Source: Candidatus Cloacimonadales bacterium
GTDB taxonomy: Bacteria > Cloacimonadota > Cloacimonadia > Cloacimonadales > JAFGVF01
Direction: 5' to 3'
NCBI GenBank assembly: GCA_963677495.2
Contig: CAXXOU010000004.1
Span: forward strand, 1,441,726 to 1,505,725
DNA: 64,000 nt
Position numbers and translations under genes: made by a program. Each line of letters starts with the position of its first letter. Within the stretch, counting starts at the first letter, position 1. Positions 10,357-57,644 of the stretch are shown piece by piece. The notes under the pieces were generated by a model. It saw nothing but the letters and a program-made list of their open reading frames with translations, was not told the DNA's origin and did no database searches.

Positions 10357-10941
10357 ATGAAAAGGTTTAATGAGTATCACAAAAGGCTCCTCCCTCATAT
10401 TCAAGAATATGGTGGAGTTTATTCAATAGTATTTAGACTTGCTTGGTCTATCCCTGTTGCTAAGTTGAAAGAAATAAGTATTGAGAAAAGACCCAATAAT
10501 GATACTTGTTACTTCACTAAGTTTGATAATTATCTAGATACATGTTCAACTCCCAATTGGTTACTAAACCCCAAAATTGCTAAATTGGTGGAGAACACTA
10601 TTCATTTCCATGATAATGGAAAGTATTTAGCAATAGCTTTTTGCATAATGCCAAACCATGTGCATTTAATTCTTGAACCTTTGTTTAAGAACAAAGAAAC
10701 TCCTTTTGCACTAACAGAAGTTTTGCACTCAATCAAGACTTATACTGCAAAGGAAGGAAATAGGATTCTAGGTAGAAAGGGACAATTCTGGTCTCATGAA
10801 AGCTATGACCATTTGATAAGAAATGAAAAAGAACTCTACAATCAAATCGAGTATTTGAAGAACAATCCTGTCAAAGCAAAACTGGTTGCTGATCAGGATG
10901 ATTGGGAGTATACTTGGGTTGCTGAAGATATTGAATTGTAA
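10357..10941 (+). CDS. REP-associated tyrosine transposase (RAYT, Y1 HUH family)
   Basis: LPH N-terminal motif, HUH in CIMPNHVHLI, FWSHESYDHLIR, catalytic-type Y in EYLKNNPVKAKLV; flanked by REP arrays. Confidence 0.92.
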   Translation: MKRFNEYHKRLLPHIQEYGGVYSIVFRLAWSIPVAKLKEISIEKRPNNDTCYFTKFDNYLDTCSTPNWLLNPKIAKLVENTIHFHDNGKYLAIAFCIMPNHVHLILEPLFKNKETPFALTEVLHSIKTYTAKEGNRILGRKGQFWSHESYDHLIRNEKELYNQIEYLKNNPVKAKLVADQDDWEYTWVAEDIEL

Positions 10942-50642: not shown

Positions 50643-51154
50643 CCCTACTTGCTACTTGCACCGCAACGAAGTGTGGGGCGAGGAACTCTGGCAAGTAATA
50701 GATAAAAAAGCCGACCACCTACGGTCGGCTTTACCGGGTCCGCGGACATCCCTGCTTGCCGTGCCGTAGCTCTGCAAAGGATGGTCCCTAGACCTTCGAA
50801 ATGGTGCTCTTGTTATACCTTACTCGAGAAAGGGAGCCTTCAAACGATGGGTGTTATTCCCCTCTCATAGAGGGGTGGCGACTTGTCGTCGGGGTGTTTC
50901 TTCCTTCGGGATTCACCATTTGCAAGGTTTACAACCATTCCAAAGGTGAGATTGTGTGTTCTACCTTTCGAATGTACTGTAGCACCGTCAACCCATATTT
51001 AAACTTTTTCTATAAATTCCCATGTTCATAACATCATGGATAACTTTCTTAACTTACCCACATTCCACACCACGACTATTAGAGCTTTGGTGAGGAGCTC
51101 TATTAGCCGTGGATTGTGGATAAGTTATCTATCGAACGCAAGTTATCCACAATA

Positions 51155-52150
51155 CTATGAACAATTTATGTTACTGGTTCTGTTTCTTTGCAACGCATAA
51201 TATGGTGTCCATTCTCTATCATACTTAACAATAGCAAATAGCTGACGCAAAAGCTTGTTAGCTGTAGCTACTATTGCCTGTTTGTGAGTCTTCTTCTCAC
51301 TCTTTAGATGGTTGTAATATTGCACAAACTCTTCATTATGCTTTCTCGCACTATTAGCAGCCATGTAAAGCATCCGTCTAATTGCAGGACTCCCTTTCTT
51401 ACTTATTGATCCTCGACCATTCAAGCTAGTCCCGGATTGCCGTGGATTCGGGTTCAGACCTGCAAATGATACTACTTTCTTTGCATTATCAAACTTACTG
51501 AAATCATCATAATAAGCGATAGCTGTAGCAATTGTTAGAGTACCTACACCAGGAATAACTATGAGCTTTTTATAGATCTTAGTATATCTACTCTTCAAAA
51601 ACTTCTCTATAGCTTTTTCTAGTGTTTTTGTAGTTTTCTTAATAGATTCAAGCATGTAAGCGTTAGATTCTTGAACAACTTCGGATACTTGCATTCCTAA
51701 CTTATATGCATGAATTTGGTTAGTTAGTTCTGTTTTCACTTTAATAAATCTACTATAACTTCTGAGAAGTTCTATTAGCTCTAACCTGTCGTCTGATGGT
51801 GGCTCATAGATGCCACATTCATAGTTGTATCCAAATCTCGCGATAATCTTAGCATCAGCTTTATCTGTCTTAACTCTGCTCATTGTTAAATTAGCAAAGG
51901 TCTTAATAATAAAAGGATTAACTACATGAATTATATGTTTTTGATTATGTGCTTCCATAGCAATCTTGGTATGATATGCACCTGTAGCTTCCATGTAAAT
52001 ATGAACAGAACCGGGAGTAAATGGTTTCAAGAACTCATTAAACTTCTTAGGATCGTTATCAATTATAGAATGTTCATGTCTATGTCCATCATATACGCTC
52101 ACATCCAACTTATCCTTTGATACATCCAATCCAATTACTCTCTTTTTCAT
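51155..52150 (-). CDS. IS110 DEDD recombinase/transposase
   Basis: GLDVSK, MEATG, KTDKADA, IPGVG, AGLNP..QSGT, ISKKG..IRRMLY. Confidence 0.96.
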   Translation of the reverse strand: MKKRVIGLDVSKDKLDVSVYDGHRHEHSIIDNDPKKFNEFLKPFTPGSVHIYMEATGAYHTKIAMEAHNQKHIIHVVNPFIIKTFANLTMSRVKTDKADAKIIARFGYNYECGIYEPPSDDRLELIELLRSYSRFIKVKTELTNQIHAYKLGMQVSEVVQESNAYMLESIKKTTKTLEKAIEKFLKSRYTKIYKKLIVIPGVGTLTIATAIAYYDDFSKFDNAKKVVSFAGLNPNPRQSGTSLNGRGSISKKGSPAIRRMLYMAANSARKHNEEFVQYYNHLKSEKKTHKQAIVATANKLLRQLFAIVKYDREWTPYYALQRNRTSNINCS

Positions 52151-52164
52151 AATTTACTCCTTTA

Positions 52165-52320
52165 CAAATATTATAAGAATAAGTAATCTACCATTGCAAA
52201 ATACGGGCTTCAATGCCCAATGTACTGTACAGACTAAGCGGAAGGTGGGCTTAACATTCGAAACGAGTTTAATGACTCAATGGTCTTATAGCTTATTCAC
52301 CTTCCCTTATTCTTAATGTC
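52165..52320 (-). ncRNA. Putative bridge RNA of IS110 copy 1
   Basis: On the minus strand: GACCATT and TTTCGAATG (target guides) inside a GGAAGGTG/CACCTTCC stem, then TACAGTACATT and TGCAATG (donor guides) around a GGGC/GCCC hairpin; ends are approximate. Confidence 0.8.
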
Positions 52321-52595
52321 TGTTTATTTCTCTTATTTTATTTGGTGTCAACTATACAATGGTCCCTAGACCTTCGAAATGGTGCTCTTGTTATTCCTTA
52401 CTCGTGAAAGGGAGCCTTTAAACGATGGGTGTTATTCCCCTCTCATAGAGGGGTGGCGACTTGTCGTCGGGGTGTTTTCTTCCTTCGGGATTCACCATGT
52501 CAATGGCAGTGAGAAATGGTACACGATGGCAGTGAAAAGTGGTACAAAACTGCCAACCTTTAAAAATGACTACTTCAAGACAGTTTGGAGTAGGT

Positions 52596-54071
52596 ATGAT
52601 TGGAGTAGAAGTGTATCATTCAATAAAAACTATGCATAAGCAAGGGCATAGTCAGCGTAAGATCGCAGAGGAGTTGTCTCTATCAAAGACAACAGTAGGT
52701 AAATACATAAATATGACACTTGATGAGTTCATGGAACTAATAAACAATAGCATTCGTGAAAGCAGTTTTGCCATATGTGAGCAATATGTCCGCGAAAGGC
52801 TTAGCAAATATCCACGATTAAGAGCTAGTGTACTATATTTAGAAGTTAAGAAAAAGTTCCCTGAGATAAAAGCAAAAGACAGAGCTTTCCGAGATTTTGT
52901 TCGTAAGCTAAAGCAGACTTATCCTGTCGATAAATACCGTAATTATGCAGTTATCGAGACGGCTCCCGGTGTTCAGGTTCAAGTTGATCCAGGTGAGATG
53001 AAAGTAGTTTTGGGTAATAAACGTCAAAGAGTTTATTTTATAGTTTTTGTGCTTTCCCACTCGCGTCAAAGCTATGTCCATTGGAGCACAACACCATATA
53101 ACACATCAAGGTTTATTGAAGCTCATCGTGAAGCTTTTATCTATTTTGAAGGTATCCCTTCAGAGTGTGTTTACGACCAGACAAAGCTTGTAGTAATACA
53201 GGAACGCTATCGGGAAGTAATCTTAAATAATCAGTTCCATCAGTTTGCAGCAAAAACGGGCTTTCATCCTCATGTATGCGAAGGCTATGATCCACAAAGC
53301 AAGGGTAAAGTAGAGCGTAATGTCTCAGAAGTAAAGCATGGCTTTATGTATGGCAAAGAGTTCAAAGACCTGGCAGACCTGCGTTCACGCGGACTTGAGT
53401 GGCTTTTACACTTTAACGGCAGAACCCATGGCACAACCCGTAAAGTACCATCAGAAGTATGGCAAGAAGAGAGGTTAAAGCTAAAAGATATTCCAGAGTT
53501 TATCTTCACTTTAGAAGTTCGTAGTGCAGATAAAACAGGCTTAATCTCGTATGAGGGTAATAAGTACTCTGTTCCATTAGAGTATCAGCGAAAACAGGTA
53601 TATGTGCAAAAAGAAAAGAGCACTTTAGTGGTGATGGATATTTATACAAGAAAGGAAATCTGCCAACATGAGCTATGCACAGAAAAAGGCAAAATCATCA
53701 AAAACACTAATCATTATCGGGATTTTACGGTAGTGCTACAAGAGCTTATTGAGCGAGTAAAGGATGAGATGAGTGAATATATCCAAGGAGAAGAACTAAT
53801 CCAGAGGCTTGTTAATGATAACCCTAAAATAGCAAGGGATCAGTTGAGAGCCTTAAGCAAGTTTAAGCGTAACTATGAAACAGATGTATGGGAGTCAGTG
53901 CTTCCTGAGGTAATGACTCTTTCGCATGTAAAGGCAACAGCCATAGAGAAGCTTCTGAATGCAAAAGTAAGACAAATGAAGCTAAATGAATTATCAGAAT
54001 CAGAACCACAACAAGACTCAGAGAGTTCATTAATAGAGCGCTCATTAGATGACTACATGAAGGTGTTATAA
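52596..54071 (+). CDS. istA: IS21 transposase
   Basis: Matches copy 1 except EVRS vs EVRN. Confidence 0.95.
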   Translation: MIGVEVYHSIKTMHKQGHSQRKIAEELSLSKTTVGKYINMTLDEFMELINNSIRESSFAICEQYVRERLSKYPRLRASVLYLEVKKKFPEIKAKDRAFRDFVRKLKQTYPVDKYRNYAVIETAPGVQVQVDPGEMKVVLGNKRQRVYFIVFVLSHSRQSYVHWSTTPYNTSRFIEAHREAFIYFEGIPSECVYDQTKLVVIQERYREVILNNQFHQFAAKTGFHPHVCEGYDPQSKGKVERNVSEVKHGFMYGKEFKDLADLRSRGLEWLLHFNGRTHGTTRKVPSEVWQEERLKLKDIPEFIFTLEVRSADKTGLISYEGNKYSVPLEYQRKQVYVQKEKSTLVVMDIYTRKEICQHELCTEKGKIIKNTNHYRDFTVVLQELIERVKDEMSEYIQGEELIQRLVNDNPKIARDQLRALSKFKRNYETDVWESVLPEVMTLSHVKATAIEKLLNAKVRQMKLNELSESEPQQDSESSLIERSLDDYMKVL

Positions 54072-54072
54072 G

Positions 54073-54804
54073 ATGATAGAGATAACTAAAACATACATCA
54101 AAAGGGCTCGTTGTACTCATATTTTGAATACTCTTGAAAGTGCAGTTTTAGAAGCAGAGAAACAGAATATGACTTATCTGGAGTTCGTACATTATCTATT
54201 TGAAAAAGAGAACTCAGGAAGGAATCAAACCAATATCAACAGAAGACTTAAACAGGCTCACATCCCGGTAATAAAGACCTTTGATGAGTTCGACTATGCT
54301 TATCAACAAGTAATAACCAAAAGACAAGTAAAGGAGTGGAAGAACTTTGTCTGGCTGGAGCAGAGGAGGAATATAATTTTAATGGGACCTCCGGGAGTAG
54401 GTAAGTCTCATGTTGCAACAGCACTCAGTTATGAAGCAATAAAGGCAGGCTATAAGGTGGTGTTTTATAATCTGAACAACCTTATCGAAGAACTTGTACT
54501 AGCTGAAGCAGATAACAACATAGATAAATATCTAAGCAATATAGCCAAGAATGATCTGATAGTTATAGATGAGATGGGGTATCTTCCTCTCCAGACAAAG
54601 GCAGCTAATCTGTTCTTTAGACTCATCCATCTCTTATACGAATTTAGATCAGTAATCATAACATCGAATAGGTTGTTTAATGAATGGGGAGCTATTTTTA
54701 ACGACAATGTGATAGCAACTGCTATTCTTGATAGATTACTCCATCACTCACAACCAATTACAATGCTCGGAGATAGCTTTAGACTAAGGAATTTTCAAAA
54801 ATGA
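54073..54804 (+). CDS. istB: IS21 helper ATPase
   Basis: Matches copy 1 except GKS vs GKT in Walker A. Confidence 0.96.
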   Translation: MIEITKTYIKRARCTHILNTLESAVLEAEKQNMTYLEFVHYLFEKENSGRNQTNINRRLKQAHIPVIKTFDEFDYAYQQVITKRQVKEWKNFVWLEQRRNIILMGPPGVGKSHVATALSYEAIKAGYKVVFYNLNNLIEELVLAEADNNIDKYLSNIAKNDLIVIDEMGYLPLQTKAANLFFRLIHLLYEFRSVIITSNRLFNEWGAIFNDNVIATAILDRLLHHSQPITMLGDSFRLRNFQK

Positions 54805-55291
54805 AGACTGTACCATTTTTAAATGCCAAACTGTACCAATTTAAAATGCCATTGACATTCACCATTTGCAAGGTTTACAACCATTCCAAAGGTGAGATTG
54901 TGTGTTCTACCTTTCGAATGGTCCCTAGACCTTCGAAATGGTGCTCTTGTTATACCTTACTCGAGAAAGGGAGCCTTCAAACGATGGGTGTTATTCCCCT
55001 CTCATAGAGGGGTGGCGACTTGTCGTCGGGGTGTTTCTTCCTTCGGGATTCACCATTTGCAAGGTTTACAACCATTCCAAAGGTGAGATTGTGTGTTCTA
55101 CCTTTCGAATGTACTGTAGCACCGTCAACCCATATTTAAACTTTTTCTATAAATTCCCATGTTCATAACATCATGGATAACTTTCTTAACTTACCCACAT
55201 TCCACACCACGACTATTAGAGCTTTGGTGAGGAGCTCTATTAGCCGTGGATTGTGGATAAGTTATCTATCGAACGCAAGTTATCCACAATA

Positions 55292-56287
55292 CTATGAACA
55301 ATTTATGTTACTGGTTCTGTTTCTTTGCAACGCATAATATGGTGTCCATTCTCTATCATACTTAACAATAGCAAATAGCTGACGCAAAAGCTTGTTAGCT
55401 GTAGCTACTATTGCCTGTTTGTGAGTCTTCTTCTCACTCTTTAGATGGTTGTAATATTGCACAAACTCTTCATTATGCTTTCTCGCACTATTAGCAGCCA
55501 TGTAAAGCATCCGTCTAATTGCAGGACTCCCTTTCTTACTTATTGATCCTCGACCATTCAAGCTAGTCCCGGATTGCCGTGGATTCGGGTTCAGACCTGC
55601 AAATGATACTACTTTCTTTGCATTATCAAACTTACTGAAATCATCATAATAAGCGATAGCTGTAGCAATTGTTAGAGTACCTACACCAGGAATAACTATG
55701 AGCTTTTTATAGATCTTAGTATATCTACTCTTCAAAAACTTCTCTATAGCTTTTTCTAGTGTTTTTGTAGTTTTCTTAATAGATTCAAGCATGTAAGCGT
55801 TAGATTCTTGAACAACTTCGGATACTTGCATTCCTAACTTATATGCATGAATTTGGTTAGTTAGTTCTGTTTTCACTTTAATAAATCTACTATAACTTCT
55901 GAGAAGTTCTATTAGCTCTAACCTGTCGTCTGATGGTGGCTCATAGATGCCACATTCATAGTTGTATCCAAATCTCGCGATAATCTTAGCATCAGCTTTA
56001 TCTGTCTTAACTCTGCTCATTGTTAAATTAGCAAAGGTCTTAATAATAAAAGGATTAACTACATGAATTATATGTTTTTGATTATGTGCTTCCATAGCAA
56101 TCTTGGTATGATATGCACCTGTAGCTTCCATGTAAATATGAACAGAACCGGGAGTAAATGGTTTCAAGAACTCATTAAACTTCTTAGGATCGTTATCAAT
56201 TATAGAATGTTCATGTCTATGTCCATCATATACGCTCACATCCAACTTATCCTTTGATACATCCAATCCAATTACTCTCTTTTTCAT
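55292..56287 (-). CDS. IS110 DEDD recombinase/transposase
   Basis: Same protein as 51155-52150. Confidence 0.96.
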   Translation of the reverse strand: MKKRVIGLDVSKDKLDVSVYDGHRHEHSIIDNDPKKFNEFLKPFTPGSVHIYMEATGAYHTKIAMEAHNQKHIIHVVNPFIIKTFANLTMSRVKTDKADAKIIARFGYNYECGIYEPPSDDRLELIELLRSYSRFIKVKTELTNQIHAYKLGMQVSEVVQESNAYMLESIKKTTKTLEKAIEKFLKSRYTKIYKKLIVIPGVGTLTIATAIAYYDDFSKFDNAKKVVSFAGLNPNPRQSGTSLNGRGSISKKGSPAIRRMLYMAANSARKHNEEFVQYYNHLKSEKKTHKQAIVATANKLLRQLFAIVKYDREWTPYYALQRNRTSNINCS

Positions 56288-56301
56288 AATTTACTCCTTT
56301 A

Positions 56302-56457
56302 CAAATATTATAAGAATAAGTAATCTACCATTGCAAAATACGGGCTTCAATGCCCAATGTACTGTACAGACTAAGCGGAAGGTGGGCTTAACATTCGAAA
56401 CGAGTTTAATGACTCAATGGTCTTATAGCTTATTCACCTTCCCTTATTCTTAATGTC
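56302..56457 (-). ncRNA. Putative bridge RNA of IS110 copy 2
   Basis: Same sequence as 52165-52320. Confidence 0.8.
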
Positions 56458-56629
56458 TGTTTATTTCTCTTATTTTATTTGGTGTCAACTATACAATGGT
56501 CCCTAGACCTTCGAAATGGTGCTCTTGTTATTCCTTACTCGTGTAAGGGAGCCTTCAAACGATGGGTGTTTTCTCCGAATTGCACCATTTGCAAGGTCTC
56601 GCAAACTCAACCATTCCAAAGGTACGATC

Positions 56630-57085
56630 TCATTCCACAATCCAATGCGTCAGGTCATCATACCGTGGAATCATTGGTAGCAACTCATGTTCGATTGCTT
56701 CTTTAACTGTCCTTACCGGTAATCCGGTATCTACAACTACTTGTGGGGTCACTGTTAACAAATCAACGGGATAGCCATCTTTCTTAAGTTTAAACATCAT
56801 CTTTCGTAACAATGCCGAATAACTCGGTGGTCTGCATTTGTGTCGGTAACTTAGTTTGTACCTGTCTGTGTAATCTTTCAAATCATTAATATACTCCGGA
56901 TTGAGAAGTTCTTTGTAAACTGCGAGTTGTTTGGAAACGCTACCCATGTAGTGGTTATGTTCTGTTAACTCTGGCATCACGAACTCTCGTACCCACATGA
57001 TATTTCCATCTTCGTCACAGCAATACACAAGCTTCCCATGTTTACCGGACATCGATTTGAAAGGGAATCCTAAATAACTTTTCAT
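56630..57085 (-). CDS. Uncharacterised ~150-aa multicopy family, paralog D
   Basis: AAGGAGA RBS before MKSYL; SGKHGKLVY, REFVMP, YINDLKDY, VDLLTVT, TVKEAIEHELLP. Confidence 0.87.
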   Translation of the reverse strand: MKSYLGFPFKSMSGKHGKLVYCCDEDGNIMWVREFVMPELTEHNHYMGSVSKQLAVYKELLNPEYINDLKDYTDRYKLSYRHKCRPPSYSALLRKMMFKLKKDGYPVDLLTVTPQVVVDTGLPVRTVKEAIEHELLPMIPRYDDLTHWIVE

Positions 57086-57199
57086 AATGATCTCCTTACT
57101 TGATTGGTTTATAATTGTTTCGGACTGCATCGACTGTGTCGATGCGCATTGACACAGTCAATGTACTCCTAAAGTAAGCTGTATCTGCTCGCATCTATT

Positions 57200-57522
57200 G
57201 TAGTGCAAGTGTCCTCACTTGCTCATAGCTCGCAGAGCTATATCCCTTAAGTACCTTGAGAATGGTCCTTAGACCTTCTCAATGGTGCTTTCCGGAAGAA
57301 GTGAATCGCAACGAAGTGCCTAAGAAGACGGCGTACCTATGTAAATCAACCTTTGTAGTGCTAACACTATCACTATCTAGTTGAGTTCCGGCCAGTGGCA
57401 AATGCCGACTTCGTCGTCACAGCAACTCAGGCCTGTCGGGGCGAAGCCTTTGGCGAAGACCGAAGAGTCGCAGTACATGTAGTGCAAGTGTCCCCACTTG
57501 CTCATAGCTCGCAGAGCTATAT
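57200..57522. repeat. Dispersed copies of the RAYT-array REP modules
   Basis: GTAGTGCAAGTGTCC(T/C)CACTTGCTCATAGCTCGCAGAGCTATA at 57200 and 57479; degenerate B module at 57388-57476. Confidence 0.8.
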
Positions 57523-57644
57523 CCCATATTATATTTTTGGCTTAATGCTTTTACATCAATGGAGTTTGTCAGAACGAATTGAAAACGGACTTCATCTGAT
57601 GTATCTATTCAGCATTTAGCATTGTATGTGCATCTTGCATCTTG

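Follow-up and report, generated by a model that had tools for sequence, protein, structure and literature searches.

Two identical IS110 elements in a Cloacimonadales genome, each with a probable bridge RNA for a host-repeat target

The stretch of DNA analyzed here (the window, 64,000 nt from a Candidatus Cloacimonadales bacterium) holds two identical copies of an IS110 element, each of which very probably carries a bridge RNA programmed for a host-repeat target and for the element's own joined ends. The bridge-RNA mechanism dates from 2024, when such RNAs were predicted for the majority of IS110 elements. The pair is a clear but expected example of that mechanism. An initial annotation of the sequence had treated the span from 50971 to 56498 as one IS110 element, which proved to be wrong in extent: the span includes two copies of 1,383 nt that are 100% identical (A1, 50975-52357; A2, 55112-56494), together with host repeat units and an IS21 element. 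The principal features of this region are as follows.

50971..50974, minus strand: right junction CATT of copy A1
50975..51154, minus strand: right end of A1, 180 nt, with a long hairpin starting at the stop codon
50986-50991, minus strand: TTGACG in the A1 right end, -35-like half of the predicted circle-junction promoter
51155..52150, minus strand: transposase/recombinase gene of A1, 331 aa
52151..52357, minus strand: left end of A1, 207 nt, non-coding, encoding the predicted bridge RNA
52157-52163, minus strand: ribosome-binding site AAAGGAG, downstream of TTGCAA-18-TATAAT
52170..52199, minus strand: promoter-like TTGCAA-18-TATAAT that overlaps the bridge RNA gene in its 3' part (consensus match only)
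52351-52356, minus strand: TATAGT in the A1 left end, -10-like half of the predicted circle-junction promoter
52358..52361, minus strand: CATT at the left junction of A1, comprising core CAT and the initial base of the left end, placed by comparison with the empty site
52498..54857, plus strand: IS21-family element, 2,360 bp, outside the IS110 element and inserted in a host repeat unit
52539-54071 and 54073-54804, plus strand: IS21 genes istA and istB
54910..54925, minus strand: empty target site GGGAC-CATT-CGAAAGG, with a host repeat unit on either side
55112..56494, minus strand: copy A2, 100% identical to A1 over 1,383 nt, features at +4,137
55108-55111 and 56495-56498, minus strand: junction CATT sequences of A2
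55292-56287, minus strand: gene of A2
56301-56458, minus strand: bridge RNA of A2

On the minus strand, the junctions read GGGAC-CATT-GTATAG on the left and CTACAGTA-CATT-CGAAAG on the right. An empty GGGAC-CATT-CGAAAGG site is present in the same window. Because the junctions were compared with this empty site, the ends of the element are fixed independently of the guides. The comparison reveals site-specific insertion with a short shared core and without any other target duplication. A 3-bp CTA...TAG pair can be seen by eye, unscored, at the two element termini. The IS21 element is flanked by a 7-bp TGGTGAA duplication, and a 2,360-letter high-depth contig in the sequencing runs begins at its first base, 52498.

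The protein encoded by A1 carries both IS110 domains, PF01548 (9e-22, residues 6-148) and PF02371 (7.1e-23, residues 195-279), the N-terminal DEDD RuvC-like and C-terminal Tnp domains of the group in Pfam. Near full-length matches to solved structures were obtained for ISCro4 (9t56, 1.5e-29) and IS621 (8wt6, 9.1e-29). Residues D9, E54, D96, D99 and S239 do not vary among four relatives, and ISCro4 has the same residues at the aligned positions; the catalytic residues given for IS621 in the sections consulted are D11, E60, D102, D105 and S241 (PMC11208158). The earlier description of an intact IS110-group element is thus borne out by both domains, the catalytic positions and the matches to solved recombinases, and A1 and A2 are each predicted from sequence to encode a DEDD/serine recombinase of the IS621/ISCro4 type. 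When genome contigs were scanned with this one protein, the matches were limited to distant relatives in Streptomyces and Yaniella (26-39% identity, partial matches), which were left unused.

The non-coding left end contains the following elements of the predicted bridge RNA, given for copy A1.

52164..52321, minus strand: bridge RNA core matched by covariance model R1 (97.2 bits, E ~6e-19)
52306..52314, minus strand: P1 5' strand AAGAAUAAG, pairing with 52175-52183 (CUUAUUCUU), the outer helix closing both arms
52298..52305, minus strand: P2 5' strand GGAAGGUG, pairing with 52240-52247 (CACCUUCC), the base of the target arm
52279..52285, minus strand: left target guide (LTG) GACCAUU, same sense as left target plus core
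52265..52278, minus strand: P3 hairpin GAGUC-AUUAA-ACUC, capping the target-binding loop (fold and covariation)
52255..52263, minus strand: right target guide (RTG) UUUCGAAUG (DNA TTTCGAATG), exact complement of CATTCGAAA
52231..52236, minus strand: P4 5' strand UAGUCU, pairing with 52184-52189 (AGAUUA), the base of the donor arm
52219..52229, minus strand: left donor guide (LDG) UACAGUACAUU (DNA TACAGTACATT), in the sense of the right-end terminus plus core
52205..52218, minus strand: P5 hairpin GGGC-AUUGAA-GCCC, capping the donor-binding loop (fold and covariation)
52192..52198, minus strand: right donor guide (RDG) UGCAAUG, 6/7 complement of core plus left-end start, with a G-T wobble at the mismatch

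All four guide motifs were recovered exactly where the initial annotation had placed them on the minus strand, in the lower copy A1, and they recur 4,137 bases higher in A2. In both loops the 5' side carries the top-strand sense, whereas the 3' side is complementary to the top strand. To gauge chance, the 207-nt left end was shuffled 50,000 times at the mononucleotide level: matches to the LTG 7-mer arose in 515 shuffles, to the RTG 9-mer in 64, to the LDG 11-mer in five, and to LTG and RTG together in just one. In comparison, the RDG 7-mer with one mismatch allowed was matched in 20,625 of the 50,000. These counts place LTG, RTG and LDG far above chance and make RDG uninformative alone, so that three of the four matches originally proposed stand by themselves, whereas the 6/7 match of RDG is at chance level and is credible solely through its position and its conservation in relatives. 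The pairing of LTG past the core is short, amounting to GAC plus CAT(T).

The left-end RNA has two internal-loop arms, with the target loop preceding the donor loop. Its single-sequence fold (-45.7 kcal/mol, z -2.86, with none of 200 shuffles equally stable) contains the three stems named in the initial annotation, GGAAGGUG/CACCUUCC, GAGU/ACUC and GGGC/GCCC. Alternative pairings take the place of P1 and P4 in this minimum-energy fold, and the evidence for these two helices comes instead from comparison among relatives, in which 9/9 pairs of P1 and 6/7 pairs of P4 change on both sides. The check that had been suggested, folding together with a covariance model across homologous left ends, was run. 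Model R1, which was trained on four relatives with this element excluded, recovered the element at the 97.2 bits listed above, and its scan of the genome found exactly four copies, each upstream of an IS110 gene.

Covariation extends across six helices. Pairing is seen in 91.9% of pair cells when 22 distinct sequences are compared, against 74.0% in shuffles and 38-55% for slid partners, and both sides change in 30 of 36 pairs; a first set of 17 distinct sequences had given 90.1% against 66.5%, with both sides changing in 32 of 36 pairs, although all of these alignments were fitted to the model and are therefore biased toward the structure. P2 is paired in 100% of cells of the covariation alignment. 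No conserved 5' stem-loop was seen, the modelled helices starting at P1, and the first ~46 nt of the single-sequence fold contain no local hairpin. Searches of the window against Rfam gave no match at the gathering score, with only chance-level matches at E up to 10.

If the loops are guides, they should follow the flanks of each element, and indeed they do. The six letters beyond CAT were scored for each element against its own flank and against the flanks of other elements. The LTG score is 3.90 for own flanks and 1.89 for others (n=21), and the corresponding values are 4.24 and 2.22 for RTG (n=17), 5.76 and 4.73 for LDG (n=17), and 4.10 and 3.54 for RDG (n=20), the weakest of the four. The observed total was reached in none of 10,000 permutations for LTG, RTG or LDG and in one for RDG, figures that are not probabilities because the junctions were placed by short terminal motifs and the elements are related rather than independent. 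Stem covariation and guide-to-flank covariation independently support the identification of this RNA as an IS110 bridge RNA.

Individual relatives illustrate the same relationship. A same-genus relative (L014) is inserted in CATT-TGAAAGG, and its RTG is UUUCAAAUG. A diverged sister element in the same genome, IS-B, has the LTG GACCCGU and is inserted in ACCCGT..GGT(T/A)AA within a different host repeat; five unoccupied CAACCCGTGGTAAAG sites are present. Compared with the element described here, IS-B has nearly the same donor loop and ends and a different target loop. A variant of ~95-99% identity is present in two marine metagenome runs of other studies; it carries an RTG change (52261 A>C), and its flank is unreadable.

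The initial annotation had proposed four shared nucleotides, CATT, between donor and target. These letters are indeed found at both junctions here, but the obligatory core appears to be CAT or shorter, given that, of 17 related loci, 13 have CAT at both junctions and only nine have all four letters there, on which ground the fourth T was rejected as a core base. At loci that differ in the fourth letter, this letter follows the right arms. The IS621 top strand is described as being cut directly after an almost invariant T (PMC11208158), and the fourth-letter pattern of the relatives, considered purely as a sequence pattern, is consistent with a cut after T. Because relatives share CAT only and IS621 is cut after T, the fourth T here most likely lies outside the core and begins the right donor and right target arms. 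The core is probably AT.

By analogy with IS621, we infer that the RNA is transcribed, that circles form and that the element is probably still active. The proposed bridge RNA, ~160 nt long and upstream of the gene, would form two arms closed by the outer helix P1. In the target arm (P2, P2b, P3), the 5' GACCAU(U) would pair with the bottom strand of left target plus core, and in the donor arm (P4, P5), UACAGUACAU(U) and (U)UGCAAUG would match the joined right end and left end of the excised circle. Excision would place TTGACG 16 nt upstream of TATAGT, creating a junction promoter that drives the bridge RNA. This RNA would then bridge the circle junction and a copy of the target, and the recombinase would exchange strands directly after the core T.

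The predicted joined ends do read TTGACG, 16 nt and TATAGT, and a -35-like motif in the right end and a -10-like motif in the left end, 16-17 nt apart, occupy the same place in 12/12 loci with both junctions. The TTGCAA-18-TATAAT motif listed above is possibly the transposase promoter. All of these hexamers were judged by a sigma-70-type consensus, which may not describe the promoters of the host phylum.

Both copies are inserted at GGGAC-CAT-TCGAAAGG, the joint of neighboring units of a dispersed ~190-nt host repeat. This repeat is modular (152 BLAST segments), with a target word that is nearly palindromic about TTCGAA, and the element is absent from eight further exact GACCATTCGAAA sites. 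The statement that IS621 targets REP elements agrees with the titles and consulted text of the IS621 literature (PMC11208160). REP-type repeats are short, palindromic and dispersed and have a tie to a RAYT (Y1) transposase; the genome has 14 Y1_Tnp matches, as a bare count.

One alternative accepts the same anatomy but holds that the element no longer moves: an old insertion would have been duplicated, or unequally exchanged, within the tandem repeat, and the RNA would be a preserved relic. The right flanks of A1 and A2, identical over 194 nt, speak for such an event, as does the presence of only two copies although eight exact targets are free. Because the shared right flank allows duplication, the identity of A1 and A2 is weak evidence for recent transposition, and the pair could represent one insertion plus local duplication. 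In contrast, the left flanks show 95% identity over 80 nt together with an indel, and an unoccupied unit junction separates A1 from A2, an arrangement not expected if element and unit had simply been duplicated in tandem. The gene is also intact at all catalytic positions, the copies have remained 100% identical, and near-identical variants occur in marine metagenome runs from other studies. The contigs of the four sequencing runs contain no circle junction or excised allele of this locus, a result that says nothing either way since contigs cannot show a rare junction; such joints and loose ends as they do contain match other host-repeat copies. On balance, we regard a relic as unlikely.

It is far less plausible that the matches between left end and flanks are remnants of a captured repeat or target duplication, with the protein alone picking the site and the left end serving as leader and promoter. 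Host-like words might be expected near the ends of an element that sits in a repeat, and the RDG match is at chance level. However, the target halves are split around a hairpin with the right half inverted, unlike a captured copy, and relatives with unrelated targets show matching changes at the same loop positions. Six helices covary, and by structural family the protein closely matches RNA-guided recombinases. A programmed bridge RNA remains by far the better account of these observations.

Three copies of the host repeat elsewhere in the genome lack the element, yet the letters to the left of their core are those of the element's right-end terminus. Two of these sites read TACAGTA-CATT-CGAAAGG, exactly the stretch matched by LDG plus RTG, and one site differs from three paralogous repeat copies solely in a 5-nt patch. 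Among 12 genomes of the family, the pattern AGTACATTYGAAAGG was found outside this genome only in G003, where it is a known right junction, and in G004 and G008, where the matches were ruled out as repeat sites because they are ribosome-binding regions of an orthologous gene. A tentative explanation, which we consider possible but not favored, is that the element-less sites are footprints left in nature by bridge recombination that was incomplete or non-canonical, such as one-sided strand transfer or aberrant excision.

The likeness to IS621, as presented in the consulted sections of PMC11208160 and PMC11208158, is extensive. The two systems have the same two protein domains with conserved catalytic D, E, D, D and S, a left-end bridge RNA with the target loop first and with 5' sense and 3' antisense sides, insertion into an intergenic host repeat that is site-specific and leaves no scar, a right-end -35 and left-end -10 (here -35-like and -10-like) that circle formation would join, and, probably, T at the last core position. 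The IS621-type architecture initially proposed stands with respect to the LTG-RTG-LDG-RDG order and the senses of the loops, whereas the scaffold differs: covariation here supports the outer helix P1, which the initial annotation did not describe, as well as an extra helix, P2b, and no conserved 5' stem-loop was seen. The protein match to IS621 is distant (E 9.1e-29), CAT is shared here (core probably AT) where IS621 shares CT, RTG pairs contiguously over 9 nt rather than the 4-7 nt described for IS621, and the right end, short in IS621, measures 180 nt here and holds a long hairpin.

ISCro4 (PDB 9t56) is the best solved match (E 1.5e-29, residues 5-310) and was compared by protein alone. According to the portions consulted, all insertions of ISPpu10, an IS110 element of Pseudomonas putida, map to copies of one conserved intergenic repeat (bioRxiv 10.64898/2026.03.19.712850), and insertion in copies of a host repeat is likewise seen here. 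Similarly, multi-copy and expanded composite IS110 loci have been described (bioRxiv 10.64898/2026.08.14.744561, in part), which resemble the 5.5-kb block in which two direct copies bracket repeat units and the IS21 element. Among 10 of the 26 hits of a literature search pairing bridge RNA with Cloacimon*, a three-way junction or a closing stem, none was a bridge-RNA paper, which is weak as a negative.

With these elements, a little-studied and uncultured lineage contributes a clean natural example, in the form of a compact and fully specified system of recombinase, RNA, donor, target and empty site. The alignment of 22 sequences defines a scaffold variant with a closing helix, and the element and IS-B together form a natural reprogramming pair that is testable for cross-use. 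The element-less donor-arm sites may bear on how IS110 recombinases excise or fail. If they are indeed footprints of recombination, the genome would preserve evidence relevant to the current debate about single-strand and half-match reactions by IS110 recombinases.

The initial annotation had treated positions 50971..56498 as a single IS110 element. The motif coordinates assigned to that element belong to one copy (A1), and the span itself comprises two IS110 copies plus other DNA, with host repeat units and an IS21-family element between the copies.

Features of the composite locus
50975-52357, minus strand: IS110 copy A1, 1,383 nt
51155-52150, minus strand: A1 recombinase gene, 331 aa
55112-56494, minus strand: IS110 copy A2, 1,383 nt
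55292-56287, minus strand: A2 recombinase gene, 331 aa
50780-50974, 52358-52497, 54858-55111 and 56495-56640: tandem array of the host repeat, about four units
54910-54925: empty target GGGAC-CATT-CGAAAGG, at an uninterrupted host-repeat unit junction between A1 and A2
52498-54857, plus strand: IS21-family element, 2,360 bp, with istA and istB (IstB_IS21, 2.1e-71)

A1 and A2 are 100% identical, and both are flanked by GGGAC-CATT at the left and CATT-CGAAAG at the right. Because the empty site is present at 54910-54925, the element ends could be set independently of the guides. The target is the junction of host repeat units, a near-palindrome around TTCGAA. Units of ~190 nt fill the space between A1 and A2, and the repeat is also dispersed as modules over all four contigs of the genome (152 BLAST segments). 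The 14 Y1-transposase matches (Y1_Tnp, PF01797) in the genome, among them a weak match under the curated cut-off at window positions 10612-10863 (contig C4:1452337-1452588, plus strand), may bear on which enzyme moves these repeats. The IS21 element splits a host repeat unit and lies between the two halves of a 7-bp duplication, TGGTGAA. In sequencing runs from the organism, a contig of exactly 2,360 bp is 10-13 times as deep as the contig for the IS110 body, so the IS21 element is multi-copy. Just past A2 lie two 51-nt direct repeats (57199-57249 and 57478-57528) that are 96% alike and 279 bp apart.

The recombinase carries both IS110 Pfam domains and matches solved bridge recombinases over nearly its full length (ISCro4, 1.5e-29; IS621, 9.1e-29). 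Residues D9, E54, D96, D99 and S239 are invariant in four relatives (39-57% identity) and align with identical residues of ISCro4; the equivalent residues of IS621 are described as making up a composite active site (PMC11208158). Relatives include a diverged sister element, IS-B, with two copies in the same genome (57% protein and about 73-79% DNA identity), and a 39% relative, L014, in a same-genus genome. A metagenome scan yielded 80 loci.

A covariance model of the bridge RNA (R1), built from four relatives only (L014, L031, L033 and L036) with its structure drawn by hand, scores this left end at 97.2 bits. Matches at E below 1e-4 occur in 15/91 sources. In this genome the model finds exactly four places, every one upstream of an IS110 gene, and it has matches in 11 of the 151 sampled genomes of the phylum, counting this one.

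Helices of the bridge RNA
P1: AAGAAUAAG/CUUAUUCUU, outermost helix, enclosing all others
P2: GGAAGGUG/CACCUUCC
P2b: GCU/AGC
P3: GAGU/ACUC hairpin
P4: UAGUCU/AGAUUA
P5: GGGC/GCCC hairpin

The single-sequence fold of the left end (-45.7 kcal/mol, z -2.86) contains all three stems named in the initial annotation. This minimum-energy fold gives P2, P2b, P3 and P5 and replaces P1 and P4 with other pairings, so the support for the latter two comes from covariation. Among 22 distinct sequences, whose alignments were fitted to the model and are thus biased towards the modeled structure, standard pairs fill 91.9% of pair cells, compared with 74.0% in column shuffles (0/500 as high as observed) and 38-55% after displacing the partners by 1-3 columns; in 30 of the 36 pairs, both sides vary. 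A first set of 17 distinct sequences, fitted in the same way, gave 90.1% versus 66.5%, with both-side changes in 32/36. No conserved 5' hairpin was seen in the bridge RNA of this element, and the closing helix P1 was found instead. This helix, a contiguous 9-nt right target guide (RTG) and a long, structured right end are minor differences from the IS621 scaffold.

All four guide motifs lie where the initial annotation had placed them. When the 207-nt left end was shuffled 50,000 times, the 7-mer of the left target guide (LTG) was present in 515 of the shuffles, the RTG 9-mer in 64, the 11-mer of the left donor guide (LDG) in 5, and LTG and RTG jointly in 1. These three matches are therefore far beyond chance. 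The 7-mer of the right donor guide (RDG), with one mismatch allowed, was present in 20,625 shuffles and is uninformative by itself.

The guides also track their flanks. Loop strands were taken from the alignment at every R1 match, and six letters past CAT were scored against the element's own flank and the flanks of other elements. Junctions were placed by short terminal motifs, and by the empty site for this element. Poor rows were retained, including L120, L115 and L124 (doubtful junction), and only the duplicate window copy was left out; rows without a six-letter flank or guide (e.g., L016) are absent from the test concerned. Because kin are not independent, the permutation figures are indications rather than probabilities.

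Guide scores (own flank; other flanks; n; permutations at or above the observed total)
LTG: 3.90; 1.89; 21; 0/10,000
RTG: 4.24; 2.22; 17; 0/10,000
LDG: 5.76; 4.73; 17; 0/10,000
RDG: 4.10; 3.54; 20; 1/10,000

Individual loci illustrate this correspondence. L014 has the site CATT-TGAAAGG and guide UUUCAAAUG, and this element has CATT-CGAAAGG and UUUCGAAUG; at locus L117, 6/6 letters match on both the left and right target sides. In IS-B (L026:1293-2700, about 338140-339545 of contig C2; L024:1293-2700, about 269220-270625 of C4), the scaffold and donor loop are nearly as in this element, and the target loop is different. Its guides (LTG GACCCGU, RTG UUAGCCAUG) correspond to the site ACCCGT..GGT(T/A)AA, the final word of arrays of ACCCGTGGT words with 11-bp spacing, and the two RTG positions that look mismatched form G-T or U-G wobbles. 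Five CAACCCGTGGTAAAG sites are unoccupied.

The four shared letters originally proposed, CATT, hold only in part: CAT is common to the left and right junctions in 13/17 loci, and all four letters in 9/17. A fourth letter that differs follows the left end in the left junction and the right target in the right junction. In IS621, the top strands are reported to be cut immediately 3' of a CT core, whose T is almost invariant and whose first letter is less so, with AT, GT and TT cores functional (PMC11208158; PMC11208160). The simplest reading would be an AT core after a shared C, cut after T, with both right arms beginning at the fourth T. This reading is also consistent with IS-B, which has CGT-G targets and a CAT-T donor and retains G at its left junction and A at its right junction.

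All 12 loci for which both junctions are available combine a right-end -35-like hexamer with a -10-like one at left-end bases 2-7, at a distance of 16-17 nt (here TTGACG and TATAGT, consensus matches only), the same arrangement described for IS621 (PMC11208160; PMC11208158). Another consensus match, TTGCAA-18-TATAAT (52199-52170, minus strand), could be the promoter of the transposase gene. Among the sequencing runs listed as containing the element, none is registered as RNA, and no circle junction was seen in the assembled contigs, where a rare one would not show up. A right-end hairpin of about 135 nt, beginning at the stop codon (50975-51160, minus strand; -64.7 kcal/mol, z -6.8), is possibly a terminator or insulator. 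It also occurs in IS-B, with several compensating changes between the elements seen by eye; the same-genus relative, with a right end of only about 30 nt, lacks it.

Three element-free repeat copies bear IS110 right-end letters where the left target is expected.

Donor-arm patches (contig C4, minus strand)
608541-608557 (L134:1499-1515): TACAGTA-CATT-CGAAAGG
1193740-1193756 (L135:1499-1515): TACAGTA-CATT-CGAAAGG
67236-67250 (L133:1501-1515): TAAGTA-CATT-TGAAAGG, a looser match

The genome has 27 CATT[CT]GAAAGG sites, 25 of them element-free, and a chance 7-mer match among those 25 is not credible. In 59-nt contexts, the copy at 608541-608557 is set apart from three paralogous copies by this 5-nt patch alone. 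Such patches may have arisen when a former copy was deleted between CTA triplets, through template switching from one repeat to another, or as an aberrant product or footprint of the recombinase. A search for mirror-image left-end patches found none beyond one 12-letter match, possible by chance.

Activity would be favored by the intact gene, the identity of A1 and A2, another eight exact matches to GACCATTCGAAA (each inside a repeat copy, none occupied) and the presence of nearly identical variants in marine metagenome runs from other studies. Counting against it, A1 and A2 may not be independent events, because their right flanks are identical over 194 nt. Judged by sequence, the element appears to have each of the testable features that define the IS110 group. 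For IS621, the mechanism, the targeting of REPs and the junction promoter have already been published (PMC11208160; PMC11208158), bridge RNAs are predicted for 85.7% of catalogued IS110s (PMC11208160), and a 2026 preprint describes composite multi-copy IS110 loci (bioRxiv 10.64898/2026.08.14.744561). A variant about 95-99% identical in marine metagenome contigs (runs X5 and X6) carries 52261 A>C (plus strand) inside the RTG, a change that would retarget the element to CATTCGCAA, with a guide also found in L031.
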